In this document: in pieces, positions 473-22,136 of the stretch
Layout of the letters: every line of letters begins with the position of its first letter
How positions within the stretch are numbered: the first letter of the stretch is position 1
Notes under the pieces: generated by a model
Seen by the model: the letters and a program-made list of their open reading frames with translations, nothing else
Database searches by the model: none
What the model was told of the DNA's origin: nothing
Source of the DNA: a virus
Taxonomy: Duplodnaviria; Caudoviricetes
IMG/VR virus record: IMGVR_UViG_3300005805_000173
Location: 1-40,933 of that record
Strand: one strand, 5' to 3'
Length of the DNA stretch: 40,933 bases
Made by a program: the position numbers and the translations under genes

Positions 473-655
473 CTAGCGAACCCTGAAAACGCCAGCGAAC
501 CACAAGTTCCAGAGCACAAACAGCAGATCGATCAGAGCAGAACCATATTCACCACGCATAGCACGGTGGATCATGAATGTGGACATGACGCCAGCCAGAA
601 AAGCAAAAACCGAGTTCTGATGTAAATACCACCAACGAAGCAGATTGTTTTGCAT
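473..655 (-). CDS. small two-TM membrane protein
   Basis: 60 aa ORF with two hydrophobic segments; start overlaps clpP stop (TAATG). Confidence 0.6.
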   Translation of the reverse strand: MQNNLLRWWYLHQNSVFAFLAGVMSTFMIHRAMRGEYGSALIDLLFVLWNLWFAGVFRVR

Positions 656-1242
656 TAGGCCCTCTTGGTGACGATCTGATCAGCCAGACCATAAGCAATG
701 CTCTGTTCAGCTGTCATGATGTTGTCGCGATCCATGTCCTGCACTAGTCGCTCATAACTCTGACCAGTGTTGGCCACATAGATTTCAGTGAGCTGCCGCT
801 TCATACGCAGAATCTCGTTGGCCTGGATCTCAATGTCTGATGCCTGGCCTCGAGCACCGCCCAGCGGCTGGTGGATCAGGTGACGAGCGTTGGGTAGCAT
901 CAGTCGCTTGCCCCGAGTACCACTGCTGGCCAACAGGCTGCCCATACTGCAAGCCTGGCCCATCACAATGGTGCTCACATCACACCTGACAAAACGCATG
1001 GTGTCCAGGATGGCCAAGCCATCAGTCACCGATCCACCAGGACTGTTGATATAGAACAGGATGTCCCGATCTGGATTTTCGCTTTCCAGATACAGCATCT
1101 GAGCCACAACCAGTCCAGCAGTGTAATGATTGACCTCATCATTCAGGACCACAATGCGGTCCCTGAGGAGCCTGCTGTAGATATCAAAAGAACGCTCGCC
1201 TTGCGAGGTCTTCTCAATTACAATGGGTACTAAGTTACTCAT
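655..1242 (-). CDS. clpP: ATP-dependent Clp protease proteolytic subunit ClpP
   Basis: [20 protein letters not shown], catalytic Ser (ACSMGS), His (IHQPLGG), Asp (DRDN); likely start [10 protein letters not shown] at 1242. Confidence 0.97.
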
Positions 1243-1248
1243 GTTTTT

Positions 1249-1278
1249 ATAATAACACTCCGTTGTGTATTGGGTCAA
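1249..1278 (-). promoter_or_regulatory. sigma70-type promoter giving leaderless clpP mRNA
   Basis: TTGACC-18 nt-TATTAT with TG extension; ATG 6 nt downstream of -10. Confidence 0.55.
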
Positions 1279-1779: not shown

Positions 1780-2791
1780 GCAATTGGGCCAGCTGTGTGC
1801 TGGCCAAATTCTTGGCTTTGGCTTCACACTGAATGTCAAAGCCAGGAGAAAAACTCAGGGCCCACTGATTAGCGGCGTTGTTCCAGAAATAATCACTATG
1901 GGCCCTGAGTTTCTGTTTCTTGAAACCCTGCTGAGTCAGTGCAGCAAAATCAGGCAGTGTGTTGACACAATGACCCACTAACAGATCTTCACGGCTCACG
2001 CTGTAGTGCATGGCAGGGCGAACTCCTCGCCAACTGTCAATGACCTGCTGCACACGACCATCATCAGGCTGAATGTATTCGCCTGTGCGAACCCAATGAT
2101 GATGGATATCCAGTACCACGGCACACTGATCTGCCACTGCCAGCACATCCTCCAAGCCGTGACCCATCTCGTCGTTCTCCACTGTGATCAGGTTGCGAGC
2201 TTCGGGGCTGAGCAGATTCAGGCTGTTGCGGAAACCCTCAGCACCCAACCGACCACTCATGTGTACGTTGATCTTGAAGCCATGATCGTGCCAATCGTTG
2301 CCATAGCCCATCCAGCGAGCACAGTCAGTGTGATACTCAAATTCCTCTGCACTGCGACGTACGATTTCAGGATTGTCGCTAGCCAAGCACACAAACTGCC
2401 CCGGATGGAAACTCATACGAACACCCAGCTCGCGAGCTCGGCGCCCCACCACAGCCATCTCCCGCTCACAGTAGGCACGGACATCAGCACGTTGCCAGAA
2501 GTATCGCCAGCGACTTTCGGTGTAGACTGGCAGCAACTCGCTGCCGATCCGGAACATTCGCTGCACTGGGGGCAGAGCACCCACTGCCTCCAGCATCAGG
2601 GCCACACTTTGTATGTTGTGTTCCATGATCTCCCACAGTCGATCTTCAGCCTGAGCCTGGGTCTGACGATTCAACCAAGCCACTGTGGTGCTGCGACCAT
2701 TTAGATCGCGGTCACTGGCGCTGACCTGCATGTTGCCCACAACGTCGTGCGGATGCAACCATTTGCAACAAAAGCCAATACGAGGTGTCAT
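1760..2791 (-). CDS. uvsE: UV damage endonuclease UvsE/UvdE
   Basis: RIGFCCK, FRIGSELLP, SFHPGQF, TVENDE, VLDIHHHW, HYSVSRE, RAHSD, IQCEAKAKNLA motifs of the UVDE TIM barrel. Confidence 0.92.
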   Translation of the reverse strand: MTPRIGFCCKWLHPHDVVGNMQVSASDRDLNGRSTTVAWLNRQTQAQAEDRLWEIMEHNIQSVALMLEAVGALPPVQRMFRIGSELLPVYTESRWRYFWQRADVRAYCEREMAVVGRRARELGVRMSFHPGQFVCLASDNPEIVRRSAEEFEYHTDCARWMGYGNDWHDHGFKINVHMSGRLGAEGFRNSLNLLSPEARNLITVENDEMGHGLEDVLAVADQCAVVLDIHHHWVRTGEYIQPDDGRVQQVIDSWRGVRPAMHYSVSREDLLVGHCVNTLPDFAALTQQGFKKQKLRAHSDYFWNNAANQWALSFSPGFDIQCEAKAKNLASTQLAQLLTSYGS

Positions 2792-2797
2792 ATTCTA

Positions 2798-2826
2798 ATG
2801 ATAGCAACTGGGCTGTCGTTTGTCAA
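2798..2826 (-). promoter_or_regulatory. sigma70 promoter, leaderless uvsE mRNA
   Basis: TTGACA-17 nt-TATCAT with TGc extension; ATG 6 nt downstream. Confidence 0.75.
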
Positions 2827-2831
2827 CCGGC

Positions 2832-3074
2832 TCATTTGCTCAAAATTTCCCAAACCTGCATCTTGCGCTTTTCTCGTAGGATCAAAAACGATACCACCCT
2901 CTCAAATGCAATGGCAGCAAGGGATATGAAAACAAAGATTGAGAAATAAATTTGGTACGGCAATTTCAAAAACAAATCGCTTATATTCAGTATGCACAAA
3001 GAAACAGCGTAGATTGGCAGAATTAGAACATGTTTATAAATCTTTTCTAAACGTACCAGTTTGGCGGTTTTCAT
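2832..3074 (-). CDS. two-TM membrane protein
   Basis: Likely start MKTAKLV at 3074; two hydrophobic helices. Confidence 0.6.
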   Translation of the reverse strand: MKTAKLVRLEKIYKHVLILPIYAVSLCILNISDLFLKLPYQIYFSIFVFISLAAIAFERVVSFLILREKRKMQVWEILSK

Positions 3075-3081
3075 ATAGATT

Positions 3082-3111
3082 ATACTAGCATAAACCAGCA
3101 ACGGTTGTCAA
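3082..3111 (-). promoter_or_regulatory. sigma70 promoter, leaderless
   Basis: TTGACA-18 nt-TAGTAT with TGc extension; ATG 7 nt downstream. Confidence 0.6.
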
Positions 3112-3123
3112 TCCTGGCTGATT

Positions 3124-3447
3124 TTATGACCACCTCAGTCGAAACCAGGTAGCATCAGTCTCCCGAACAAAATAAAAGGTTCGATTATCCCAAAGCCAGT
3201 CTTCACCAATACTGCTATTGGTATCAGCAAACACAGCAAACACGTCCAGAGGGTAATCCAGGGTCACCATGATGAAAAGATGCTGATTTTCTGTGAACAA
3301 ACGAAATACCCCACCAGGGTGAGGGGGCACATCAAGAATTTCGGCTATGCGTCGAGATCTGCGGTCAATCATGGTCTGGAACTCCGAAACAGACATCGTA
3401 GACAATGGATCTGTTCGTTGCATGTAGGACAAAGCATTATTGGTCAA
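3124..3447 (-). CDS. hypothetical protein, dispersed member of the 'FxLRW' family with N-terminal extension
   Basis: C-terminus WLWDNRTFYFVRETDATWFRLRWS matches the array family at 18158-21205. Confidence 0.7.
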   Translation of the reverse strand: MTNNALSYMQRTDPLSTMSVSEFQTMIDRRSRRIAEILDVPPHPGGVFRLFTENQHLFIMVTLDYPLDVFAVFADTNSSIGEDWLWDNRTFYFVRETDATWFRLRWS

Positions 3448-3721
3448 AGGAGCCTCCCAGATAATGCCAGGTTTGATGACGCCGGTATTCCTGATTGAGC
3501 AATCGGTAATACCAGATAGAAACGCCAGACTCCAACAATTCCAATCCCACTGATATCAAAAATATTGCAGCAAAAATTCTGCTGTTCACTGGATACCCCA
3601 TCAGGGTATGTATGGACATGAATGTCAGTGCTGACCAGACTACCCAATGCAGAGCCTTGATGAAACTAATCAGCCGTGAGCAGCACTTGGTGGTGTTGAT
3701 TTTCTGCCATAATCTGCGCAT
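3437..3721 (-). CDS. two-TM membrane protein
   Basis: 94 aa with two hydrophobic segments; overlaps next gene. Confidence 0.6.
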   Translation of the reverse strand: MRRLWQKINTTKCCSRLISFIKALHWVVWSALTFMSIHTLMGYPVNSRIFAAIFLISVGLELLESGVSIWYYRLLNQEYRRHQTWHYLGGSFDQ

Positions 3722-3727
3722 ATACTG

Positions 3728-3756
3728 ACTCTAGCACAGAATCGATTGGTAGTCGA
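3728..3756 (-). promoter_or_regulatory. sigma70-like promoter, leaderless
   Basis: TCGACT-17 nt-TAGAGT with TGc extension; ATG 6 nt downstream. Confidence 0.5.
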
Positions 3757-3757
3757 A

Positions 3758-4375
3758 CTAAAAATCAACCAAAATGATATGCTCTGCGTGACGTTTGAAC
3801 AAGGGTTTGAACAACACATTGGGCATCACCTGAAAATTCTGGCAACCAGCATCAAAGCAAAATTTGGCCAGCTGTTTGAAGTAGACTGCTCGGCGTTGCA
3901 CAGTGCCCACATGAGTCACATGAACCGGCTGCTGGGTCAGATGCTCAATTAAGTAGCTGTCGTGACTCCAGCCCTGGCGGTCATCCACTGATGGTCTGGC
4001 ATTTTCAGTGATGATCAAACTATGAGCATCGGTGTTGATGGCAAAATTCATATTGAGATCATAACGACTGGTATTTTTGAAGTCTCTGACTGTGATTATC
4101 AGTCGACTTTTCACTGTGTTTACCACCTGTTCTATCAGTGCCTGCTGATCCTGCTGGTCAGCATAGGTAAAGTATTCATCAGTGGCCAGCACCGTGTGAT
4201 ACTTCTGGTTCAGATCCAGCGCCGGATAGCTGAGCCAACAACTCAGAGTCTGAGCCACGTCAGTGGTCTGAATCTGGTTGAGGATAAATTCATAGCGTTT
4301 GGCCACTATGTTAGGGTCAACGTAAGTGGCCAAACGGTTATGTAAAAGGGTTAGATATTCAGATGAAAACACCAT
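3758..4375 (-). CDS. hypothetical protein, possibly degenerate class I SAM-methyltransferase fold
   Basis: 205 aa ORF with SD AAGGAG; KYHTVLATDEYFTY...RLIITVRDF resembles the post-motif-I part of Rossmann MTases but no GxG motif. Confidence 0.4.
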   Translation of the reverse strand: MVFSSEYLTLLHNRLATYVDPNIVAKRYEFILNQIQTTDVAQTLSCWLSYPALDLNQKYHTVLATDEYFTYADQQDQQALIEQVVNTVKSRLIITVRDFKNTSRYDLNMNFAINTDAHSLIITENARPSVDDRQGWSHDSYLIEHLTQQPVHVTHVGTVQRRAVYFKQLAKFCFDAGCQNFQVMPNVLFKPLFKRHAEHIILVDF

Positions 4376-4401: not shown

Positions 4402-6363
4402 TTATGGATTTGTGGTGTTTTCTTCCTGATGGTTGTTTTTGGCTGTCTTGATCCTGACAATCATGCTGACATAATACTGTGCCAGAACACCAGTGTTGCG
4501 TAGCTCCTTGCAGAGTTTTATGGCCGAATCAAACTTGTGAGCATAATAAAACTCCAGCATACGGTTGTGTTGATCTGCAATGGTCAAATACTGGGTCTGA
4601 TCCAGCACAGTGAACACTTTGATTGCTTCGCTGTTTTCTGTTTTCACAGTGTCCAGTTCCACACACTGGAACTCTTCCTTGACCTGAGCAGCCGTGTGTT
4701 CGCCCAGTATCATGTTTACACTGTACAGTTTGCATAGGTTTTCCAGCTGGTCAGCAGTTTTCACTGCATCACCCATGGCAGTATAGTTGAACTTGCGTCG
4801 ACTGCCAGTGTTGCCTACCACTGCGGTGCCAGTGTTGATACCAATATCCAAGCATAATGGTACTTCCTCAGGAGCCAGGGATTCATTGAATTTTTCCACC
4901 TGTCTGAGCATTTCCTGAGCACTACGCACAGCATGAATGGCATGCCGATCCAGATCCAGCGGTGCGTTCCAGAATGCCACTACACCATCGCCAATCAGCT
5001 TGTCCACTGTGCCGCTGTTGCGAGTCACTGAGGGTAACATCTGATCCATATACCCATGTATCAGGCGCACCAGGCCTTCGCTATTGGCTTTATAACTGGA
5101 AACAATGGCTGAAAAGTCTCTGAGGTCAGCGTAGAGCACTGTGAGTTCCTTGAGTTCTCCGTCGGTTTTCACAGCTTTGGGATCCTGCTTGAGCCGGCGC
5201 AGCACTGCTGACCCTACGCTGTCACCAAACTTTCTGGTGATGCTCCACTCTGAACTGCGTTTGCGAGCCAGGTGATAGTAGAAAGTCAGCGCAAACACAC
5301 TGGTACTGCTCAGCGTGGGCCAAACCCAATCCACTGCCAGCGAACTGGTGTTGAACAGCATCCAGGCACCGATGATCACCACACCCATGCCGCCAGCATA
5401 GACCGGAATACAGGCATAGGGCGTATTGGCTTTGGCTGCTTTCAGGATGCTGGTGATGATCAGCACACTGATCAGCATTTCCAACATGTCAGCCCAGGGC
5501 GGTGTCACAATGGTGTTGCGGGTAAACAGACTCTGAATAAACTGTGCCTGCACATGATGATTACGCTTGGCTCCCAGCGGAGTCTGGACCCAGTTGTTGA
5601 CCTGCTGAGTGGCCACACCCACCACCACAATCTTGTTTTTCACAGCAGTCAGGTCAGATCCAGTGGCGTTGATGGTATCGAACTCCTGGTCGAACCTTAC
5701 TCGCCAGCGATTCTGGTTGTTTACCACCCAGGGTTTCAGGCCAGTCAGGTTGACTGAATGAGTTTGATTCTGATGCTGAATTCGTGCTCGGGCGTCACCA
5801 GTCAGTGTACGCAAAGCCTCTACTCCCAGACTGTAGTACACACGATCATCGTTGAGCATCACCAGATCCATGCGTCTGACCACACCGTCAGCATCAGCCA
5901 CAGTGTTTGCAAACCCCACTGCGGCGGCTGCCTGACTCAGTGTGTCTACCGGATTGGCCACCTGATCTTCAGCCACACTGCGAGCCAGCACCACACCGTT
6001 ATTCTGTATGGCTGCGGCAAAAACCGGGTCAGTTTTGGCCAGATCTGGATCTTTAAACACATCCACAAACACAATTACACCAGCGCCAGCGGTTCTGAGT
6101 CGAGTGACCAGATCAGCCAGATGGCTTTTGGGCCAGGGCCATTGCCCCTGTTTCTGCGCATCTGCATCGGTAATTTCCACAATCACCACATCAGTTGCTG
6201 AGTTATGTGGGGCCACCCATTGCATCAGATCGCTGCCCCATAATGCTAATCGTTCGGTAATGTCATGTTGGCCGTATCGCAAGTAAAGCAACGCCAGACT
6301 AAGCATGGTCACAAACACTGCAAAGCGAAAACGGTACCATAAATCCCAGAGTTTAGTCTTCAT
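4402..6363 (-). CDS. CHASE2-domain membrane class III adenylate/guanylate cyclase-like protein
   Basis: N-terminal TM, CHASE2 signature GQWPWP and DADGVVRR, three TMs, cyclase motifs VLYADLRDFS, VDKLIGDGVVAFWNAP, IGINTG, YTAMGDAV. Confidence 0.92.
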   Translation of the reverse strand: MKTKLWDLWYRFRFAVFVTMLSLALLYLRYGQHDITERLALWGSDLMQWVAPHNSATDVVIVEITDADAQKQGQWPWPKSHLADLVTRLRTAGAGVIVFVDVFKDPDLAKTDPVFAAAIQNNGVVLARSVAEDQVANPVDTLSQAAAAVGFANTVADADGVVRRMDLVMLNDDRVYYSLGVEALRTLTGDARARIQHQNQTHSVNLTGLKPWVVNNQNRWRVRFDQEFDTINATGSDLTAVKNKIVVVGVATQQVNNWVQTPLGAKRNHHVQAQFIQSLFTRNTIVTPPWADMLEMLISVLIITSILKAAKANTPYACIPVYAGGMGVVIIGAWMLFNTSSLAVDWVWPTLSSTSVFALTFYYHLARKRSSEWSITRKFGDSVGSAVLRRLKQDPKAVKTDGELKELTVLYADLRDFSAIVSSYKANSEGLVRLIHGYMDQMLPSVTRNSGTVDKLIGDGVVAFWNAPLDLDRHAIHAVRSAQEMLRQVEKFNESLAPEEVPLCLDIGINTGTAVVGNTGSRRKFNYTAMGDAVKTADQLENLCKLYSVNMILGEHTAAQVKEEFQCVELDTVKTENSEAIKVFTVLDQTQYLTIADQHNRMLEFYYAHKFDSAIKLCKELRNTGVLAQYYVSMIVRIKTAKNNHQEENTTNP

Positions 6364-6406
6364 ATTACTAGTTTAGCATACCTGAATGAAAGTTATAAAT
6401 ATTTCT

Positions 6407-7144
6407 ATGCCAAATCATAACTTGTTTGCTTTTGATTTAATCAGCGATTTGTATTTGGAACAATGGCCCAGCATCGATTGGAGCACCGAACCCACCAGCT
6501 TAATTGCTGTGGTGGCTGGTGATCTGAGCTCGGATCTGGATCATACTGTACACGAACTCAAAAAAATCAGCAAACATTATCGCCAGGTGTTGTATATTGA
6601 TGGTGATCTGGAACATCAGGATCAGCTATCTGAAGTGGATGGGAATCGTGCTTATCTGGCAAAGAAACTCAATAACACCAAAAACATCACATACATGCAC
6701 GAGCATGTGCTGATCATCAATCATGTGGCATTCATAGCAGCCAATCTGTGGTGGAGCCCAGGCGAAAGCACCACCAGTATCAATGACGATGGTTGGATGG
6801 AGGAAATGCAGATGCTGACTCTGCATCACGAAGATCTCAACTATATGCGATACACTGTGCAGCGTATTCAGGACTGCAAGGATATTCAGAAATGTGTGAT
6901 AGTCAGTCACACTGTGCCCAACCGTGAACTCATACTGGGTCCAGCCCATCAGAATCTGTTCAGTGATGCCAGTGACTGGGTAGAGATTGAAGATCACATG
7001 CACAAAATCAGCACCTGGTGTTTTGGTCACTGGAATCGCTCAGTGAAAACCACTGTAAACGATTGTCAGTATGTGAGTAATCCCAAAGGAAAACCCAGCG
7101 ATTCGCTGGGTTTACAATACCATCCTATGAGAGTTTTGGTTTAG
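6407..7144 (+). CDS. calcineurin-like metallophosphoesterase fold protein (degenerate motifs)
   Basis: ISDLYLE, VAGDL, YIDGDLEH, VSHTVP, WCFGHWN, YVSNPKG; start at 6407 just after TATAAATA (6394-6401), or 6386. Confidence 0.8.
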   Translation: MPNHNLFAFDLISDLYLEQWPSIDWSTEPTSLIAVVAGDLSSDLDHTVHELKKISKHYRQVLYIDGDLEHQDQLSEVDGNRAYLAKKLNNTKNITYMHEHVLIINHVAFIAANLWWSPGESTTSINDDGWMEEMQMLTLHHEDLNYMRYTVQRIQDCKDIQKCVIVSHTVPNRELILGPAHQNLFSDASDWVEIEDHMHKISTWCFGHWNRSVKTTVNDCQYVSNPKGKPSDSLGLQYHPMRVLV

Positions 7145-7452
7145 CTTTTGGGTTCCACCTTGACCACCAGGGGATAACCATGCAGGCGGGCCAGGGTCAA
7201 AACCTCAATGGTTTTCTGTTCGGCAATTTCGTAGGGCATTTCAGCAACCACACACTGCCCTTGTTCGTGAACCCTCTGAGCCAGATTGGTCGCTGAGTCA
7301 GCATCATAGTCAAAAACTTCCACCAAGCTGCTGATGACAAATTCAAAGCTGGTCACGTCGTCATTGACATAGATCACGCGGTACAGCGGAGGTTCGGCAA
7401 TCGCAGTATTGATGGCAATTTTGGTTTTTTCAATTAGATCTGTTTTAGGCAT
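7141..7452 (-). CDS. clpS: Clp protease adaptor ClpS
   Basis: PPLYRVIYVNDDVTSFEFV, VHEQG, YEIAEQK, GYPL motifs. Confidence 0.93.
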   Translation of the reverse strand: MPKTDLIEKTKIAINTAIAEPPLYRVIYVNDDVTSFEFVISSLVEVFDYDADSATNLAQRVHEQGQCVVAEMPYEIAEQKTIEVLTLARLHGYPLVVKVEPKS

Positions 7453-7473
7453 AGTTTTTGTCAGTGTGTGGAT

Positions 7474-7494
7474 GGGCGGGGAGGATCCCCGCCC
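7474..7494. other. GC-rich hairpin between hsp20 and clpS
   Basis: GGGCGGGGA-gga-TCCCCGCCC; no U-tract follows on the minus strand, so a stabilising or attenuating hairpin rather than a classic terminator. Confidence 0.6.
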
Positions 7495-7500
7495 GGGTGT

Positions 7501-7938
7501 TTAGGCAAAGTTGATAGCCACTGTACGAGGCTTCAACGCTTCGGGCAATTTGCGCTCCAGGTCAATGGTCATGATACCATTCTTCACTGTGGCGCTGACC
7601 ACTTCAACGTACTCAACCAGGCGCCATTCCCTCTGGAATTTGCGGCGGCTGAGCCCGCGGTGGACGTAGACAGTTTCTGCTTCGGGCTGATCCTGGATCT
7701 CACCAGTGACCGTCAACATACCATTGTTCACTGTGACTTCCAGGTCCTGCTCACCAAAACCAGCAACAGCAATTTCAATGCTGTAGTGGTCATCATCACG
7801 ACGGATGATGTTGTAGGGCGGGTAGCTGACTCTGGCAGGCGAAGCTGCATTCAGTGTATCAAACAGATGATCGAAACCAATCATCCAGCGGCCCAATTCG
7901 GGGCTCAAAGCAGTAGTAGTCATTGATAGATTACTCAT
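7501..7938 (-). CDS. small heat shock protein Hsp20 (IbpA-like)
   Basis: IGFDHLF, YPPYNI, IEIAVAGF, YVHRGLSRRKF, NGIMTIDL alpha-crystallin motifs. Confidence 0.95.
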   Translation of the reverse strand: MSNLSMTTTALSPELGRWMIGFDHLFDTLNAASPARVSYPPYNIIRRDDDHYSIEIAVAGFGEQDLEVTVNNGMLTVTGEIQDQPEAETVYVHRGLSRRKFQREWRLVEYVEVVSATVKNGIMTIDLERKLPEALKPRTVAINFA

Positions 7939-7941
7939 TGT

Positions 7942-7965
7942 AGTAACTCCTTTTTAAGCAAGTTA
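7942..7965 (-). promoter_or_regulatory. ROSE-like RNA thermometer over hsp20 RBS
   Basis: mRNA UAACUUGCUUAAAAAGGAGUUA: UUGCU motif pairs with AGGA SD with a bulged G; upstream hairpin 7973-8000. Confidence 0.6.
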
Positions 7966-8001
7966 TTTTTCTATGGGAGGCCTTGTTAAGCACCTCCCAT
8001 G

Positions 8002-8036
8002 TATTTATACTAACACGCCGCAAACGGCAAAATCAA
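8002..8036 (-). promoter_or_regulatory. overlapping T4-like late promoter (TATAAATA) and sigma70-like promoter for hsp20
   Basis: TATAAATA at 8002-8009; TTGATT-18 nt-TAGTAT with TG extension. Confidence 0.55.
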
Positions 8037-8042
8037 CAGTTT

Positions 8043-8288
8043 TTACTCGGACTTGTCGGCTTTGTTGTTCATATCTTCCATGCGAGCCCGCTTGCGCATA
8101 CGAGCCAGTGCCTGACCGCGGGCACGACGTCGTAACTCGCTGGGCTTCACATAGAATTCCTTCTTTTTCAGATCCTGCAGAACCCCTTCGTTCTGCATCT
8201 TCTTCTTGAGCTTGCGCAGAGCACGCTCAAGATCACCATTCTGGACTTCCACCACAATGCCTTGTGGGATGCCATTCTTGTCTCTCAT
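8043..8288 (-). CDS. rpsU: ribosomal protein bS21
   Basis: VEVQNGDLERALRKLKKK...LKKKEFYVKPSELRRR, the bS21 signature. Confidence 0.9.
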   Translation of the reverse strand: MRDKNGIPQGIVVEVQNGDLERALRKLKKKMQNEGVLQDLKKKEFYVKPSELRRRARGQALARMRKRARMEDMNNKADKSE

Positions 8289-9526
8289 TTTGCTTTTATC
8301 ACCTTGGTTGATTTAGACTGCTTATAATACATGACAGGATCGGCATCACTGGCAAACACTTCAGCAGTGAATTGGATCCTGTCAATCTTTTGTTGTTTGT
8401 ATCTGGGAATTGCAAACAGATGTGGTATCAGTTTGTATTCCAGTATGCTACGCAGCGCACGAGCACCGGTTTTCATACCAATGGCTTGCTGAGCAACATA
8501 ATCCAACGCATCGGCAGTGAATTCAATGCCGATGCCATCAGTTTCAAAATAAAATCTGTACTGCTCTATCAGATTGTGTTTGGTATTGGTTAGTACCTCT
8601 ACCAGATCCTGAACACTCAGTGCCTGAGTATGCACTGTGACTGGGAATCTGCCCACAAATTCTGGTATCATGCCAAACTTGATCAGATCTTCATTGGTTG
8701 CACCTGAGGTGTCGGTTTTGATTTCCACAGTCTTATCAAACCCAATGCGATTCTCACGATGGCGGCGGTTTACAATTTCCTGCAAGCCCACAAAAGCGCC
8801 ACTGGCTATGAACAGTATACCGCCAGTGTCAATATCCACTGTGCTGTTGCCCGGATGCTTCTTGCCGTTTTCAGCCGGCACTGTGACCACAGCACCTTCC
8901 ACCAGCTTGAGCAGAGCCTGTTGCACACCTTCACCACTGATATCACGATTGGCGCTGGAATGCTCGTTTTTCTTGCCAATCTTGTCCACCTCATCCAGAA
9001 ACACTATGCCACGTTGTGTGCGTTCCACATTGCCGTCGGCTGCTGCTAGCAATCGGCTGATTACTGATTCTACGTCTTCGCCCACATAACCAGTTTCAGT
9101 CAGGCTGGTTGCATCGGCTATCACAAAAGGCACATCCAGGAACTCTGCGATAGTTTTAGCTAACAGTGTTTTACCGCTGCCTGTGGGTCCCAACATCAAA
9201 ATGTTACTCTTTTCAATCCTGACTGCTGAACTGTAGAACAATCTCTTGTAGTGATTGGCTACTCCCACACTCAGCGTCATTTTGGCAGCTTCCTGACCAA
9301 TCACATGCTGGTCCAGATACTGTTTGATTTTCATGGGATTGGTATGTTTGACGGCTCGCTTGCTTTTTTTGATCTCGGCATTTTGTTGCTCAGTGAGCAG
9401 ATTTTTGCATTTGATCACGCACTCATCACATATAGCATGTGAACCACCTATGATCAGCTTGTTGACTTCGTTGCGGGATTTATCACAGAAGCCACAAAAG
9501 TTTGGGATGGACGAGTCTTTGTTCAT
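8285..9526 (-). CDS. clpX: Clp protease ATP-binding subunit ClpX
   Basis: C4 zinc finger CGFC..ICDEC, Walker A GPTGSGKT, GYVGEDVE pore loop, Walker B FLDEVDK, IGF loop, GARALR; start 9526 or 9541. Confidence 0.97.
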   Translation of the reverse strand: MNKDSSIPNFCGFCDKSRNEVNKLIIGGSHAICDECVIKCKNLLTEQQNAEIKKSKRAVKHTNPMKIKQYLDQHVIGQEAAKMTLSVGVANHYKRLFYSSAVRIEKSNILMLGPTGSGKTLLAKTIAEFLDVPFVIADATSLTETGYVGEDVESVISRLLAAADGNVERTQRGIVFLDEVDKIGKKNEHSSANRDISGEGVQQALLKLVEGAVVTVPAENGKKHPGNSTVDIDTGGILFIASGAFVGLQEIVNRRHRENRIGFDKTVEIKTDTSGATNEDLIKFGMIPEFVGRFPVTVHTQALSVQDLVEVLTNTKHNLIEQYRFYFETDGIGIEFTADALDYVAQQAIGMKTGARALRSILEYKLIPHLFAIPRYKQQKIDRIQFTAEVFASDADPVMYYKQSKSTKVIKAK

Positions 9527-9557
9527 GCTGTTATTTAACATAATCCATCAGGTTATT

Positions 9558-10217
9558 TCATTTTCCCAACACATTTTCCTTTTTCAGATACTTTTTGACC
9601 TGACTGAGTTGCTGGGTGTTTAGATCATCCATTTCAATGATACCGTTGACCAGCTGTTCTATCAGTTGTTCCACACTGAGATCTTCATTGTAAACCACCC
9701 AGTTTTTGCCATTGTAGCGATACATAGTGTTGGGAGTCATATCCACTCGCAGAAACTGATCACCAGTTTTGGGTTTGGTTGGAAATGCGGTGCCAAACCG
9801 GGTACTAACTGGGGCATCATTGATCAGGATGTCAGATTCTGATATCAATGCTTCCAGCTTCTGGATCAACGGATTGTCTGTGTATACAATCTTTTCCACT
9901 TCCACAATTCGCTCTGGTCCAGGAATTTCTTTGATAACCTCAACTTCTTTGATGACGTCAACTGGTACCTCTTTGATGATTTCTACCGGTACTTCCCTGA
10001 TGACTTCCACTTCTACTGGTACTTCCCTGATGACTTCTATTTCTTTGATGACTTCAACTGGTACCTCTTTGATGATCTCTACAGGTACTTCCCTAATAAC
10101 TTCCACTTCTACTGGTACCTCTTTGATAACTTCAACTGGTACCTCTTTGATAACTTCTATAGTTTGCGGAGCAGCTGACTCAGGCGATTCCGCCAAGTGG
10201 TCTGCTCCGGTTGCACA
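9558..10217 (-). CDS. C-terminal extension (EVPVEVIKE repeats + globular tail), probably reached by -1 frameshift from upstream ORF
   Basis: Open -1 frame through the slippery site; the first usable start codon is an upstream TTG buried in a hairpin; ~70 aa of VPV/VIKE repeats. Confidence 0.65.
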   Translation of the reverse strand, partial: CATGADHLAESPESAAPQTIEVIKEVPVEVIKEVPVEVEVIREVPVEIIKEVPVEVIKEIEVIREVPVEVEVIREVPVEIIKEVPVDVIKEVEVIKEIPGPERIVEVEKIVYTDNPLIQKLEALISESDILINDAPVSTRFGTAFPTKPKTGDQFLRVDMTPNTMYRYNGKNWVVYNEDLSVEQLIEQLVNGIIEMDDLNTQQLSQVKKYLKKENVLGK

Positions 10218-11017
10218 AAAGGGACAGGTTCCTGGCTGACCTCCTGGGTGATTTCAACTTCTTGCTCATCCAGTTCCAGTTTGCGATTTACTGCCAACAT
10301 CAATGCCAAAGCCAGGGGGTCAAACACAGCAACCAACACTATGATTACCCAGCGAACAGCACTCTCCAGTACATCAGCGCCAGCCTGGTCACCATAGATC
10401 AGTGCAGCAATATATTTGACTGGTCCCACTTCGGCTTCCACCTGCCTGACTTTTGCTGCAATAGGTGCTCGCTGAGCTTGTAGATCCTGGATACGACGTT
10501 GAGCTAGTTCGTTGTCCTTCTGCAATTTGGATCGTTCAGCTGATTGACTGCGACGTATTTGCACTGCTCGTTCAGCACCACGTTCATCCCGACTGCGACC
10601 CAATATCTCAGTGACACTGTTGTCCATCTGAGTTAACACCAGTTTGTTGGCAGCAATGTTGTCACGTTCGGTTTTGATTTTTTCATCAATCAGAGCAACC
10701 TCAGCCTGCACGTCAGCAGTAGGCACTGCCTGATCCAGGTGAGCTTTGCTTAGAAATCCAAAAATACCCATACTAGTGATCAGCATCAACACCACCATGC
10801 TGATCACCAGATAAATTTTCATTATGGCACCCACACGGGCCCAATTTTTTCTCAACCAGATAGTGGTTACAACTTTGCCCACTTCCAATGCGGTGCCCAT
10901 GATAATAATGGGCACCTTGGCAGCGGCAAATATTGCAGTTAAACCACTTACACTGTAAAAAGCACTTACTGAACTAATCAACAGTGCAATCAATAAAGCT
11001 GCATAATCAAGCATCAT
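10157..11017 (-). CDS. multi-TM membrane protein with coiled-coil region
   Basis: Three N-terminal TMs, long coiled coil, fourth TM (WVIIVLVAVFDPLAL); start 11017 follows stop of previous gene at 11022. Confidence 0.8.
   Translation of the reverse strand: MMLDYAALLIALLISSVSAFYSVSGLTAIFAAAKVPIIIMGTALEVGKVVTTIWLRKNWARVGAIMKIYLVISMVVLMLITSMGIFGFLSKAHLDQAVPTADVQAEVALIDEKIKTERDNIAANKLVLTQMDNSVTEILGRSRDERGAERAVQIRRSQSAERSKLQKDNELAQRRIQDLQAQRAPIAAKVRQVEAEVGPVKYIAALIYGDQAGADVLESAVRWVIIVLVAVFDPLALALMLAVNRKLELDEQEVEITQEVSQEPVPFVQPEQTTWRNRLSQLLRKL
10167..10223 (-). other. candidate programmed -1 ribosomal frameshift signal
   Basis: In-frame C_CCU_UUU heptamer (10223-10217), 7-nt spacer, stem-loop CGGAGCAG...CUGCUCCG with inner GGCG/CGCC stem. 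Confidence 0.65.
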
Positions 11018-18157: not shown

Positions 18158-18367
18158 TCAACACCATCTCAACATGAACATGGTCAGATCCTGCTCACGT
18201 TGGAAGCATAGATTGCATTGATTGTCAAGTGCCCACGAATCGTAACCAAACTGCTCATTACACCAAAACAGTGCATTTTGATCAATGGGAACTCTGACTT
18301 CGCGGCCAGTGGCGTCAACACCAAGTCTGTTGTGTCGGACAGAAACTTTGAATGGATAAGGGTCCAT
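18158..18367 (-). CDS. FxLRW-family small protein
   Basis: WCNEQFG..W...CFQREQDLTMFMLRWC. Confidence 0.8.
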   Translation of the reverse strand: MDPYPFKVSVRHNRLGVDATGREVRVPIDQNALFWCNEQFGYDSWALDNQCNLCFQREQDLTMFMLRWC

Positions 18368-18404: not shown

Positions 18405-18721
18405 GTCTTCAACGTGAGCCAAACCATGTGTTTTTCCAGCTGAGCAACCACTTGATCCATGGTTGGGTTGTCAGGAACGAAGTAGGCTTGATTGAATTTT
18501 TTGCGTCTTTCTGCCCGAAAACGGTACGGATTCATCCATCCTCGAATTTGATGCTGAACAGATCCGCCCACAGTGCCCCACAGGATTATAGAACCTGTGT
18601 TAGACATGCTTCCGAAGATTATGTCTTTCTCAAAAATGTTGGCTTGAGCCCAAAACAGCAGTTTTTCTTTTGAGCCTTGCCGAGATGGCCGAACTAAAAT
18701 GCTGTAATAATCCACTTGCAT
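18401..18721 (-). CDS. hypothetical protein (possibly WGR-like)
   Basis: 106 aa; IILWGTVGG...KKFNQAY loosely resembles WGR domains; SD GGAG. Confidence 0.5.
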   Translation of the reverse strand: MQVDYYSILVRPSRQGSKEKLLFWAQANIFEKDIIFGSMSNTGSIILWGTVGGSVQHQIRGWMNPYRFRAERRKKFNQAYFVPDNPTMDQVVAQLEKHMVWLTLKT

Positions 18722-18760
18722 GATGCTAGCTCCACATCAATATAAACATCACGGTATTTT

Positions 18761-18994
18761 TCAATAAACATCCATATCCTCTTCTTCTGTACAGTCGCCC
18801 CACCTCAACTTGAAAAATATCAGGTCTTGTTTGTCTCTGAAGAAAACGTCGGGCCATCCCCAATTCCAGCGTTCTCGGTCAGTGTCATCAAAATTGGCTT
18901 TACACCAGTGGATAATTTCAAACCACTGATCAAACTCAAAGGCGTTGCAAACGGCTTTGTACCGATACCGTATATAACCATTAGGAATTTCCAT
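18761..18994 (-). CDS. FxLRW-family small protein
   Basis: WCKANF..RWNWGWPDVFFRDKQDLIFFKLRW + acidic tail; start MEIPNG at 18994. Confidence 0.8.
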   Translation of the reverse strand: MEIPNGYIRYRYKAVCNAFEFDQWFEIIHWCKANFDDTDRERWNWGWPDVFFRDKQDLIFFKLRWGDCTEEEDMDVY

Positions 18995-19214
18995 AGTCAA
19001 TCCACTTCAATTGAAACCACATCAGATCTTGTTCGTCTCTGAAAAGAAAATTGGGCCACGACCAAGCCCAACGTTGCCATTCTTCACCATATGTTTGAAC
19101 GGCCCAGACATTCATTTCTTTCCATTGATCAAAGTCGGCGTCGGCACACCTGAATTTATATTGATAAGATATATATCCCGCTGGTGTTTCTACTTTGAAC
19201 CTTTTCTTTGCCAT
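18981..19214 (-). CDS. FxLRW-family small protein
   Basis: RWAWSWPNFLFRDEQDLMWFQLKW. Confidence 0.8.
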   Translation of the reverse strand: MAKKRFKVETPAGYISYQYKFRCADADFDQWKEMNVWAVQTYGEEWQRWAWSWPNFLFRDEQDLMWFQLKWIDYGNS

Positions 19215-19215
19215 G

Positions 19216-19437
19216 CTAAGACCACCTCAATTGAAAAAACAGTAGGTCTTGTTCATTATTGAAATAAATTTCAAGCCATCCTTTAGCCCATCGTGCTCTG
19301 TCATCGCCAAAATTATCGTTGCACCAACGAACTATGTCAAACCATTGGTTCATGTCAACATTGCTTTTGTTGACGCGATGAGAATAGGTCCGGTATCCTT
19401 CTGGCGTATGAATTTTAAACCGTGTTTTAGGTGTCAT
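19216..19437 (-). CDS. FxLRW-family small protein
   Basis: WCNDNFG..RW...YFNNEQDLLFFQLRWS. Confidence 0.8.
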   Translation of the reverse strand: MTPKTRFKIHTPEGYRTYSHRVNKSNVDMNQWFDIVRWCNDNFGDDRARWAKGWLEIYFNNEQDLLFFQLRWS

Positions 19438-19624
19438 GCTCAGACCACTTCAATTGAAACCACATCAGATCTTGTTCATGAACGAATACCAGCAATGGAT
19501 AATCCCAGCCCCAGCGGCGGCCCACTTTTTCAGAACCAAAATGCTCTCTGCACCAGTCAATCATTTCAACAAAATCATCCATTTTACAGCCAGAGTGAAC
19601 AGAAATGTAATACTGTTCTATCAT
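19427..19624 (-). CDS. FxLRW-family small protein
   Basis: WCREHFG..RWGWDYP..FVHEQDLMWFQLKW. Confidence 0.8.
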   Translation of the reverse strand: MIEQYYISVHSGCKMDDFVEMIDWCREHFGSEKVGRRWGWDYPLLVFVHEQDLMWFQLKWSEHDT

Positions 19625-19625
19625 A

Positions 19626-19838
19626 TCACTGCCACCTCAACACAAAAAACACAGCATCCTCAGAATGCTTGAACAGAAATCCTCTGATAACAAAACACCA
19701 AGTGTTCTGGGCATATTGATGATCGCACCAATTTGCCATGGACATAGCCAAGTCTTCATCAAACATAGATTGGTAGTCCAACTTGACAAAGTAGGGATAT
19801 TCAGGATGAAAATCAGGATTTGATGCCTCAAGTACCAT
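19626..19838 (-). CDS. FxLRW-family small protein
   Basis: YPY...WCDHQY...FLFKHSEDAVFFVLRWQ; start MVLEAS at 19838. Confidence 0.8.
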   Translation of the reverse strand: MVLEASNPDFHPEYPYFVKLDYQSMFDEDLAMSMANWCDHQYAQNTWCFVIRGFLFKHSEDAVFFVLRWQ

Positions 19839-20037
19839 ACTCTTCCCAGAACAAAACAAAAAATGTAACGTGTTCGGCTAGTTTGAAACGAACGCCTTCG
19901 GGATCCCAGTACCAATTGTGAACACCAAACTGCTCATCGCACCAGGAAAACATTGCAACCCGCGTCTCCCAGCCAGATTTATATCGCTTGCTAACAGCCA
20001 GATATGGATAAGTTTTTAGAACTTGCTCGGAAGCCAC
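19828..20037 (-). CDS. FxLRW-family small protein
   Basis: YPY...WCDEQFGVHNWYW...RFKLAEHVTFFVLFW; GTG start overlapping upstream TAG. Confidence 0.75.
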   Translation of the reverse strand: MASEQVLKTYPYLAVSKRYKSGWETRVAMFSWCDEQFGVHNWYWDPEGVRFKLAEHVTFFVLFWEEYGT

Positions 20038-20198
20038 TAGAGCCACCTCAATCGGAACATGGTAGCGTCGGCTTCTGATTCAAACCAAACCGTTTCATGA
20101 TAAGGATTCAGTGACCAGCGTCCAGTAGCGAACTGTTTACACCAATCATTCATTTCTACATAAACTCTAAACGGTGCTAGCGGCAGATTCATTTTCAT
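20037..20198 (-). CDS. FxLRW-family small protein (53 aa, not in ORF track)
   Basis: Hand-translated MKMNLPLAPFRVYVEMNDWCKQFATGRWSLNPYHETVWFESEADATMFRLRWL. Confidence 0.8.
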   Translation of the reverse strand: MKMNLPLAPFRVYVEMNDWCKQFATGRWSLNPYHETVWFESEADATMFRLRWL

Positions 20199-20199
20199 A

Positions 20200-20382
20200 C
20201 TATTGCCACCTCAACATAAACAGTATAGCATCTTTTTCGTGTCTGAAACGAATTGATTCAGCGCCGTATAACCAATTGTCAGTGTTTTCGAAAGTTTCCA
20301 CACACCAATCGTATCGTTTGGCTCGCTCGTTCCATGAACTTGCGCCGGTAGGAAGTTCTACTTTGTAAGGGAAAGTGAACAT
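20200..20382 (-). CDS. FxLRW-family small protein
   Basis: RYDWCVETFENTDNWLYGA..RFRHEKDAILFMLRWQ. Confidence 0.8.
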   Translation of the reverse strand: MFTFPYKVELPTGASSWNERAKRYDWCVETFENTDNWLYGAESIRFRHEKDAILFMLRWQ

Positions 20383-20565
20383 TTATAACCACCTCAGCGA
20401 GTACAGCACTGCGTCTTTTTCATGTTTGAAATAAAAACAAGTGGCGCCGTACATCCAATTGTCAAAATTCCCAAACGTTGCCACACACCAGTCATATCTT
20501 TTAGACCAGCTTTCAGTCAGTGGAACACTCACATGATATGGATATTTTTCGGCTAAACTGGGCAT
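20383..20565 (-). CDS. FxLRW-family small protein
   Basis: RYDWCVATFGNFDNWMYGA..YFKHEKDAVLYSLRWL; close paralog of neighbour 20200-20382. Confidence 0.8.
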   Translation of the reverse strand: MPSLAEKYPYHVSVPLTESWSKRYDWCVATFGNFDNWMYGATCFYFKHEKDAVLYSLRWL

Positions 20566-20566
20566 A

Positions 20567-20791
20567 CTAGGACCACCTTAGATGGAACAGCACAGCATCT
20601 TGCTCAGAGGTAAACCAAAATTGATCCACATTTGGTTCTACTCGACAGTTCACACTCGAGTACCATTTGTCTTTAAGGGTTTGCTTACACCAATTTTCCA
20701 CTTCTTCGAGTTTAGAACAAAGGAGAAGTTTGTCAAACTGAACATTAAATTCATACGGAGGAAATTTGTTGTATGCTTTTAGCACTAACAT
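20567..20791 (-). CDS. FxLRW-family small protein
   Basis: WCKQTL..KW...FWFTSEQDAVLFHLRWS; ATG overlaps upstream TGA. Confidence 0.8.
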   Translation of the reverse strand: MLVLKAYNKFPPYEFNVQFDKLLLCSKLEEVENWCKQTLKDKWYSSVNCRVEPNVDQFWFTSEQDAVLFHLRWS

Positions 20792-20970
20792 CAGGACCAC
20801 CTTAGCCCAAACATCATTGCATCTGTCTCCGATTCAAATCTGAAAACATGACAGCCACCGACCACAGCACACCCAAACAAATCTATTGCGTTTTGTTCAC
20901 ACCAGTCCAGAATTTCATCAGCTTCGGTCAATGCCAACGAACGCCCCATATTGATTTTGTGTGGATACAT
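20791..20970 (-). CDS. FxLRW-family small protein (59 aa, not in ORF track)
   Basis: Hand-translated MYPHKINMGRSLALTEADEILDWCEQNAIDLFGCAVVGGCHVFRFESETDAMMFGLRWS. Confidence 0.8.
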   Translation of the reverse strand: MYPHKINMGRSLALTEADEILDWCEQNAIDLFGCAVVGGCHVFRFESETDAMMFGLRWS

Positions 20971-20971
20971 G

Positions 20972-21205
20972 CTAGCACCATCTCAGCTTGAACATTACGA
21001 GATCAGCTTCTTTCCTGAAGTAAATCTCCTTTGTGATTATCGCCATGGTCCAACTGCCGGGTTCCAGATGCTCGTCACACCATGCAGCCAAACGGTTGAA
21101 ATGCTCGATGTGTTCATGCACCAGGCTATTTCGATCAAATCGTATGCCCACGCTATAAGGATACTCTGCAGAGTGTACAGGTTTGAACGTAATGCATTCA
21201 GGCAT
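20972..21205 (-). CDS. FxLRW-family small protein
   Basis: YPY...WCDEHL..GSW...YFRKEADLVMFKLRWC. Confidence 0.8.
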   Translation of the reverse strand: MPECITFKPVHSAEYPYSVGIRFDRNSLVHEHIEHFNRLAAWCDEHLEPGSWTMAIITKEIYFRKEADLVMFKLRWC

Positions 21206-21214
21206 AGTGAACCT

Positions 21215-21697
21215 TTAGCGATAGAGTTCGTGCATAAACGCCCGACGTTCCTGTTCAGCTTCCTGCTCCGCATAGGCTGCCTTGTAAACACACCGGCAAG
21301 TGGGCAGTTCTTCACCGCAGCATTCGCAGTCTGCAAACCGCTTCTGTACCGGAGCAGGCTTGGCCGGCACTGCTTTGGCAGCAGCATCTTCCTCGATGAT
21401 CCGGAGAATCTGCCCGGCATACTTGCAGATAGCCGGCTGATCGCGCCAAGGACGCCACACCATTTTGAGCTGCTTTTCGCTCAGAGGCTTGTTGGGAAAT
21501 TTGATCACAAATTCCGCCAAGCGGCTGAACCAAAGAGCATCTGCAGGCTGGAAGCCACGCAGGTTGTGATTGCGAGTCTGGTGGGAAGCCTGTTCGTCCT
21601 GGGTTTGGCGCTGGTACAAACGCACCAGCGCACGACGCACCCAACGTTCGTCAGTAGCCAACTTGTGGCGGATGAAGTCTTCGGTGTAGCGTTCCAT
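21215..21697 (-). CDS. hypothetical phage protein with C-terminal Cys cluster
   Basis: Start MERYTEDF at 21697 just downstream of promoter; RALVRLYQRQTQDEQ..GF..DA motif; CECC..CRC. Confidence 0.7.
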   Translation of the reverse strand: MERYTEDFIRHKLATDERWVRRALVRLYQRQTQDEQASHQTRNHNLRGFQPADALWFSRLAEFVIKFPNKPLSEKQLKMVWRPWRDQPAICKYAGQILRIIEEDAAAKAVPAKPAPVQKRFADCECCGEELPTCRCVYKAAYAEQEAEQERRAFMHELYR

Positions 21698-21706
21698 TAC
21701 TCTTTT

Positions 21707-21735
21707 AGTATAGCAAATGGTGTGCAGGGTGTCAA
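21707..21735 (-). promoter_or_regulatory. sigma70 early promoter heading the FxLRW array operon
   Basis: TTGACA-17 nt-TATACT with TGc extension. Confidence 0.8.
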
Positions 21736-22061: not shown

Positions 22062-22136
22062 TGGAGCCGGAGGAGGGATTTGAACCCTCAACCCCCTGAT
22101 TACAAATCAGGTGCTCTGCCGTTGAGCTACCCCGGC
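22062..22136 (-). tRNA. tRNA-Thr (UGU)
   Basis: GCCGGGGTAGCTCAACGGCAGAGCACCTGATTTGTAATCAGGGGGTTGAGGGTTCAAATCCCTCCTCCGGCTCCA: cloverleaf, anticodon stem CCTGA/TCAGG around TGT, GTTCAAATC T-loop, encoded CCA. Confidence 0.95.

Follow-up and report, generated by a model that had tools for sequence, protein, structure and literature searches.

Shine-Dalgarno (SD) motifs typically precede the downstream genes of overlapping pairs, where their effect on reinitiation ranges from essential to none (Huber 2019, PMC6728339), and SD-like hexamers are enriched C-terminally in genes with a close follower (2016, PMC4943179). In the relevant passages of both studies the SD lies in the 3′ coding end of the upstream gene, with stop and start adjacent or overlapping. 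In the PeSL cassettes of T4-type phages, as portrayed in the corresponding passages, short repeated linkers between non-essential genes end in an SD and a start codon, and crossovers excise or insert whole genes (2010, PMC2839356). Mini-circle intermediates are a further feature of that system. Here we analyze an array that shares features with both, in the virus record IMGVR_UViG_3300005805_000173, the whole of which (40,933 nt) we refer to as the window. Twelve paralogous open reading frames (ORFs) of 53-77 aa follow each other head to tail on the minus strand, from 21205 to 18761. Whereas the intragenic SD of the cited passages is a gene-by-gene, genome-wide tendency, one conserved protein motif appears to bear the site here across hundreds of paralogues and, unlike in those accounts, the site seems to bias the amino acid itself. 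Crossover between repeated linkers adds and removes whole genes in relatives of the array, as in PeSL cassettes; the latter are described as ~100-bp intergenic promoter-terminator elements, however, whereas in the array the gene's own coding end serves as the linker. The mechanism we propose extends known translational coupling and linker-mediated shuffling, and overturns nothing.

We consider it likely, from comparison of the sequences, that the array forms one early operon, that the codons for its C-terminal Leu-Arg-Trp (mostly YTG/YTA AGG TGG) act as the SD of the next gene, and that this shared end is the place where whole genes are gained and lost, probably by homologous recombination. 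An earlier note had drawn attention to the codons, and a recount confirmed its figures: among the 11 window members ending in Arg-Trp, nine use AGG TGG, two (20972 and 18158) use AGA TGG and none uses CGN. The other members have two Lys-Trp ends, both AAG, and one Phe-Trp; the 14 window members comprise the 12 of the array plus ORFs at 18158-18367 and 3124-3447. The comparison with wider usage that the note called for also favors it. AGG represents only 46 of 569 Arg codons (8%) in the 44 non-family ORFs of the window, 3/51 Arg codons elsewhere within the family genes, and 0/10 Arg-Trp pairs of the non-family ORFs. The binomial probability of at least nine AGG in 11 is 7e-9 assuming independent copies, which is too strong because the copies are paralogues.

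We then asked whether AGG depends on the presence of a follower in related phages. The alignment of the 14 window members gave no conserved seed for a locus search. A pattern that required Phe, Glu, Asp-Ala, Phe, Leu and Trp while leaving the Arg codon free recovered at least 138 viral loci (11 of 64 parts scanned). An iterated profile found 397 distinct members with a terminal Trp in these loci, after 45 rows lacking it were dropped; 366 had 150 nt of downstream sequence. Clustering at 50% identity reduced these to 263 representatives, of which 215 were coupled (at least 35 codons opened by a start no more than 12 nt away) and 48 uncoupled. AGG was used at 208 of 312 family Arg ends, vs. a 6.8% background and 2/64 background Arg-Trp pairs. 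Equal enrichment in copies lacking a coupled follower, which the earlier note held would speak against it, was not seen: AGG was present in 136/174 coupled vs. 4/26 uncoupled representatives (p 7e-10). The contrast was similar when only members outside the seed pattern were counted (94/119 vs. 2/17), and it held within contigs (Cochran-Mantel-Haenszel test, 14 informative contig groups, odds ratio 27.7, p 4.9e-7). In 79 ligase-anchored loci, selected without the motif and yielding only 15 representatives, AGG was found in 5/7 coupled vs. 0/4 uncoupled copies (p 0.06). The other codons of the motif behaved likewise, with AAG favored among Lys codons (20/33 coupled vs. 3/17 uncoupled) and TTG/CTG among Leu codons (157/209 vs. 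17/44). Among coupled members, 76 of 185 followers were not recognized as family members, and AGG was found before 34/48 non-family vs. 76/93 family followers. In two close relatives of the window, contigs L141 and L142, the Arg codon of unit 12 (units are numbered as in Table 1) relaxes to AGA; the follower of this unit begins within its read-through tail (ATG 18771), behind a different GAGG. Globally, these data support the idea that the codons form an SD-like signal whose selection depends on the presence of a follower.

Pairing with the anti-SD was computed with an E. coli-type 16S tail, which may differ from that of the host, and a predicted energy below -8.4 kcal/mol was scored as a strong site. 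Strong pairing (-8.8 to -10.4 kcal/mol) was predicted at 7 of the 11 window junctions, so that the claim of a good anti-SD match stands for these but fails at the AGA, the two AAG and the TTC junctions. Pairing at the AGA junction is weak and off-register, and is about -4 kcal/mol for the AAG and TTC units, which are exactly the three units that have lost their stop codon. This coincidence (3/3, p 0.024) was not established family-wide (1:3 vs. 135:76, p 0.14). At the ATGA overlaps of the family, the median was -8.9 kcal/mol (173 overlaps) compared to -3.3 for 192 non-family candidates, with strong sites at 62% vs. 6%, respectively.

The signal also appears to reach the protein. The Arg:Lys ratio was 174:33 in coupled vs. 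26:17 in uncoupled representatives, supporting the proposal that part of the motif, namely Arg over Lys, is chosen at the RNA level. The same proposal does not extend to the Trp, which was retained in 180/191 coupled vs. 39/47 uncoupled copies (p 0.03, anchored on Phe) and is therefore mainly a protein feature. If so, selection on the translation of a neighbor would be choosing an amino acid. The family offers an unusually clean natural experiment in dual coding, with hundreds of paralogues having the same position with or without a follower, and whole lineages with or without the site.

The spacing of the junctions has a different status. The distances from TGG to the next start are, in gene order, 7, 5, 7, 6, 7, 5 (to GTG), 7, 7, 7, 7 and 7 nt, confirming the count of eight at 7 nt; stop and next start lie at -1 to +1 nt at eight junctions and overlap by 11-14 nt at the other three. 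Near-fixed 7-nt spacing did not hold up as a property of the family, being found in only 16 of the 215 coupled representatives, vs. 137 at 2 nt (the ATGA overlap) and 40 at 5 nt. The 7-nt spacer is an inherited habit of the window lineage. Its persistence in the three units that lost their stop, also cited by the earlier note, was indeed seen, but says nothing about selection because substitution of a stop codon leaves the spacing unchanged. The share of AGG by spacing was 97/118 at 2 nt, 27/32 at 5 nt, 5/9 at 7 nt and 1/4 at 8 nt.

That units come and go whole at the junction was borne out in relatives L140 to L142 and in sequencing runs X2, X6 and X7. The array is present in 20 metagenome runs from 12 studies, mostly freshwater or aquaculture, four of which were compared with the window, along with four relatives 90-99% identical over the array (L139 reaches only the last units, with no change there). 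Units 7-8 are missing from L140, the joint falling inside a 10-nt shared stretch that spans Leu-Arg-Trp, and this 411-nt skip recurs in X2 and X6; L140 also carries an additional unit immediately after the TGG of unit 5. Unit 10 is absent from L141, units 10-11, 2-3 and 5 from L142, and unit 3 from X7. By hand tally, the crossover falls in the spacer or the last ~45 nt in about eight of the nine unit-scale changes that separate the window from its relatives. A scan for insertions and deletions in 68 array loci found five distinct events, two at the junction (+3 to +14) in other lineages and three outside or unrelated to units. Exact matches through the Trp codon average 6.1 nt between window units, vs. 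4.2 nt with resampled codons, exceeding all 500 resamples. All four runs include contigs that diverge directly after the unit 5 Trp codon, and three also ~35 nt earlier (20206-20240), marking either an insertion hotspot or other genes with a common end; the loose ends at 20206 were not counted as insertions because they may belong to other genes sharing a ~35-nt end.

A number of observations weigh against this reading. Within the window, 4 of 11 junctions lack a strong site (AGA, two AAG, TTC) and the member at 3124 retains AGG without a coupled follower. The earlier note had listed 3124 and 18761 as AGG orphans; the former is a true exception, whereas behind the latter lies a stub left by two lost units, both of which follow it in L141 and L142. 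AGG is the majority codon in 31 of 43 contig groups, leaving 12 where it is not. As to the crossovers, the ninth unit-scale change lies off the motif, being an internal deletion of the window that shifts the frame; the fixed codons add only ~2 nt of exact match, and only 11 of 66 unit pairs have their longest shared stretch end at the junction. Given this modest gain, crossovers are probably placed mostly by the conserved protein end and by the survival of products that stay in frame.

The strongest objections come from lineages that chain the family without the site. The family was found in all five large records searched. In G001, a 561-kb phage record, at least 130 copies occur in the 119 kb sampled (via L078 and L223-L230), in long arrays on both strands and ending mostly in Leu-Lys-Trp/Phe (117 Lys, 10 Arg). 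Ninety-seven of these are coupled without the site, 57 by ATGA-type 2-nt spacing, and there is no AAG bias (33/90 coupled vs. 9/27 uncoupled). The missing site fits the low use of SD motifs in G001 (19% of 142 starts vs. 12% shuffled). The same does not apply to the cultured jumbo Sinorhizobium phage Phosso (PV764938.1), with at least 27 copies in ~63 kb. SD motifs serve its remaining genes (43% vs. 13% shuffled, compared to 30% of starts in the window), yet it does not use the family site: its copies carry Thr, Arg or Ala at the Arg/Lys position, and AGG makes up 3/10 Arg codons (2/6 coupled vs. 1/4 uncoupled). Since both phages chain the family without it, neither chaining nor massive expansion needs the site; read from these sequences, it is a lineage-specific co-option and not the cause of the family's expansion. 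The SD-less junctions fit the variable contribution of the SD described in the relevant passages of PMC6728339. The earlier note's view that each gene supplies the ribosome-binding site of the next is thus upheld for the follower-dependent choice of codons, but not as a general rule, given a strong site at only 7/11 junctions and chaining without it in G001 and Phosso; overall, that interpretation is partly supported.

A bolder version, which we advance only tentatively, is that in one giant-phage branch the last codons became a three-purpose linker (protein motif, ribosome-binding site and crossover hotspot), providing a recombinase-free, promoter-free cassette platform that expresses inserted genes at once and captures unrelated genes as well as paralogues, RNA-level selection having fixed Arg over Lys. 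Descent alone, in which tandem duplication and 3′-end conversion copied the AGG and 7-nt spacer of an ancestral unit without RNA selection, seems to us unlikely. It accounts well for the spacer (8/11 in the window vs. 16/215 elsewhere) and for the AGG of 3124, and 3′ ends have clearly been exchanged, with 33-nt identical ends on unrelated units in L142 and in the window (the final 33 nt of unit 9 through Trp are identical to those of unit 11). It fails, however, to predict that coupled and uncoupled copies on the same contigs differ, that AAG is used over AAA, or that AGG precedes non-family followers, and last-in-array copies of the same ancestry mostly lack AGG. Less probable still is that AGG or an internal SD-like stretch simply slows the ribosome before the stop, aiding termination-reinitiation or folding, without placing the initiating ribosome. 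No Arg codon is rarer in the window than AGG, the effect of a pause would likewise be felt chiefly where a follower exists, and AGG is kept at 2, 5 and 6 nt across spacings that range from 2 to 7 nt; yet AAG and TTG/CTG are not rare and extend anti-SD pairing, and AGG declines with longer spacing, as would a spacing-dependent site. Integron cassettes have attC sites between genes, for which the 0-1 nt between array genes leaves no room; nor did we find per-unit promoters or terminators of the PeSL type in the array, where intergenic room is lacking and the few internal promoter matches lie inside coding sequence at chance level. A dedicated integron- or PeSL-like site, selected for shuffling by a specific recombinase, would suit the clustering of unit-scale changes at the junction but is very improbable, as crossovers spread over ~45 nt and not one base, an att site has no room, no Pfam recombinase or integrase was found among 59 window ORFs scanned (the contig being ~11% of the genome), one deletion is off-motif, and AGG is lost from last-in-array copies.

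We therefore return to the SD-like signal at a shared protein end. The motif and its position are primarily a protein-level feature, since the ending F-x-L-[R/K]-W-x-stop is kept in all lineages examined; in the phage group of the window, the Leu, Arg and Lys codons and the choice between Arg and Lys in addition depend on a start within 12 nt. A ribosome terminating beside the site could be held by anti-SD pairing and reinitiate on the next gene; at the three junctions where the upstream frame overlaps the next start and the site is missing, reinitiation would go on without it. Where conservation is highest, in a stretch that the fixed codons extend, unequal crossing-over would leave genes whole and the junction functional, and any gene that comes to lie behind a unit would inherit a site.

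The family, with 3,432 clusters at 50% identity (E≤0.001), is one of the largest unnamed phage protein families. Window members are 15-35% identical to the first aligned sequence, with W-C, W, F, D-A and F-x-L-[R/K]-W in common. No match to Pfam was found among 126 members, and PHROGs, NCBIfam and PADLOC gave only single-member matches (E 0.003-0.009), with no profile common to members. Against cultured phages, tblastn of unit 5 gave no match and that of unit 10 a single weak one, to Phosso. With members in this cultured phage, whose host is non-pathogenic, the function of the family is testable. One Phosso member (L222:2821-3189) lies directly behind a tRNA-Arg(CCT) gene, reader of AGG, and itself uses CGC. 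The predicted fold of unit 5 is beta-alpha-beta-beta-alpha (predicted local distance difference test score 82), Leu-Arg-Trp closing the last helix. Ferredoxin-like, RRM and ACT folds have the same strand-helix order, but the fourth strand is missing here; these domains are the best structural matches (Z 5.5-6.0, root-mean-square deviation 2.1-3.0 Å over 50-59 residues), none reaching the tool's bar of 8. Foldseek found no PDB match at E≤0.001, its myosin rows being rejected as chance. In BFVD the matches (best E 0.003) are to uncharacterised proteins of phages, Atu_ph07 among them, and ESM Atlas matches are only to unnamed viral clusters, a Gp23 row (13% of members, score 0.81-0.84) having been rejected. 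We found no published description of the family in a search that covered few subscription papers and no supplements, and the matching passages of PMC11242549 and PMC13573597 do not mention it. The strong upstream promoter match, small size, divergence and turnover suggest that the proteins are an early accessory repertoire; they might be fast-diversifying small alpha/beta scaffolds acting early in infection against host or rival-phage targets.

The window is estimated to be 11% complete, its source phage therefore probably being of jumbo size. It encodes ligase (relatives among cultured phages only ~33% identical), DnaB, primase, ribonucleotide reductase, ClpS/ClpX/ClpP, Hsp20, bS21 and PAAR. 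Strong promoter matches are found before and after the array. From the upstream one (Table 1) the array is likely driven as a single operon, through a first gene at 21697 that is probably leaderless. Genes near 21735-21697, 18404-18367, 18141-18106 and 22052-22017 begin within ~7-10 nt of a near-consensus -10 box without an SD, and such genes are probably leaderless early transcripts.

Table 1. Features of the array and its surroundings in the window.
Feature	Position	Strand	Description
Promoter match	21707..21735	-	sigma70-type, 11/12, extended -10; sole strong match directly upstream of array; putative function
Unit 1	20972..21205	-	77 aa, LRWC; AGA TGG, 7 nt to next ATG; weak site
Unit 2	20791..20970	-	59 aa, LRWS; AGG TGG, site 20797-20803; 5 nt; TGATG overlap
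Unit 3	20567..20791	-	74 aa from ATG 20791, LRWS; AGG TGG, site 20573-20579; 7 nt; missing from L142, X6 and X7 contigs
Unit 4	20383..20565	-	60 aa, LRWL; AGG TGG, site 20389-20395; 6 nt
Unit 5	20200..20382	-	60 aa, LRWQ; AGG TGG, site 20206-20212; 7 nt; folded model beta-alpha-beta-beta-alpha
Unit 6	20037..20198	-	53 aa, LRWL; AGG TGG, site 20043-20049; 5 nt to GTG; left crossover of 411-nt two-unit deletion
Unit 7	19828..20037	-	69 aa from GTG 20037, LFWEEYGT; stop lost, no site; 7 nt to ATG 19838
Unit 8	19626..19838	-	70 aa, LRWQ; AGG TGG, site 19632-19638; 7 nt
Unit 9	19427..19624	-	65 aa, LKWSEHDT; AAG, stop lost, weak site; 7 nt
Unit 10	19216..19437	-	73 aa, LRWS; AGG TGG, site 19222-19228; 7 nt; missing from L141, L142
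Unit 11	18981..19214	-	77 aa, LKWIDYGNS; AAG, stop lost, weak site; 7 nt; missing from L142
Unit 12	18761..18994	-	77 aa, LRW + 12-residue tail; AGG in window, AGA in L141 and L142
Stub of two lost units	18722..18771	-	first 19 nt + last ~30 nt of unit whole in L141/L142; decayed end VMFILMWS-stop; joined to gene at 18721
Uncoupled member	18158..18367	-	69 aa; own promoter match 18404-18375; AGA TGG; then ligase promoter match
Distant uncoupled member	3124..3447	-	start uncertain; AGG TGG, then promoter-like sequence

Further differences were seen in L142 (~90-98% identity), whose homologue of unit 4 is frameshifted and which has insertions at 2514-3870 (~1.35 kb), 4519-5331 (~0.8 kb) and 9317-10407 (~1.1 kb). 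These lie beside tRNA-Thr (window 22062-22136), in the region of the 21215 gene and behind the ligase. Proteins P0026, P0028, P0103, P0155 and P0157 each have two domains of the family, which stop loss and fusion to a neighbor would be expected to produce; the very long repeat proteins P0019, P0039 and P0061 also match the family, possibly by chance. ClpP, ClpS, Hsp20, bS21 and ClpX (window 655-1278 and 7141-9541) make up a phage-borne proteolysis set plus a ribosomal protein. bS21 affects access to the anti-SD, and a link between the phage bS21 and SD use in the window is possible. Lastly, window 4402-7144 carries a gene for a CHASE2-adenylate/guanylate cyclase and a divergent ORF of 252 aa, no other long gene having been identified on the plus strand.

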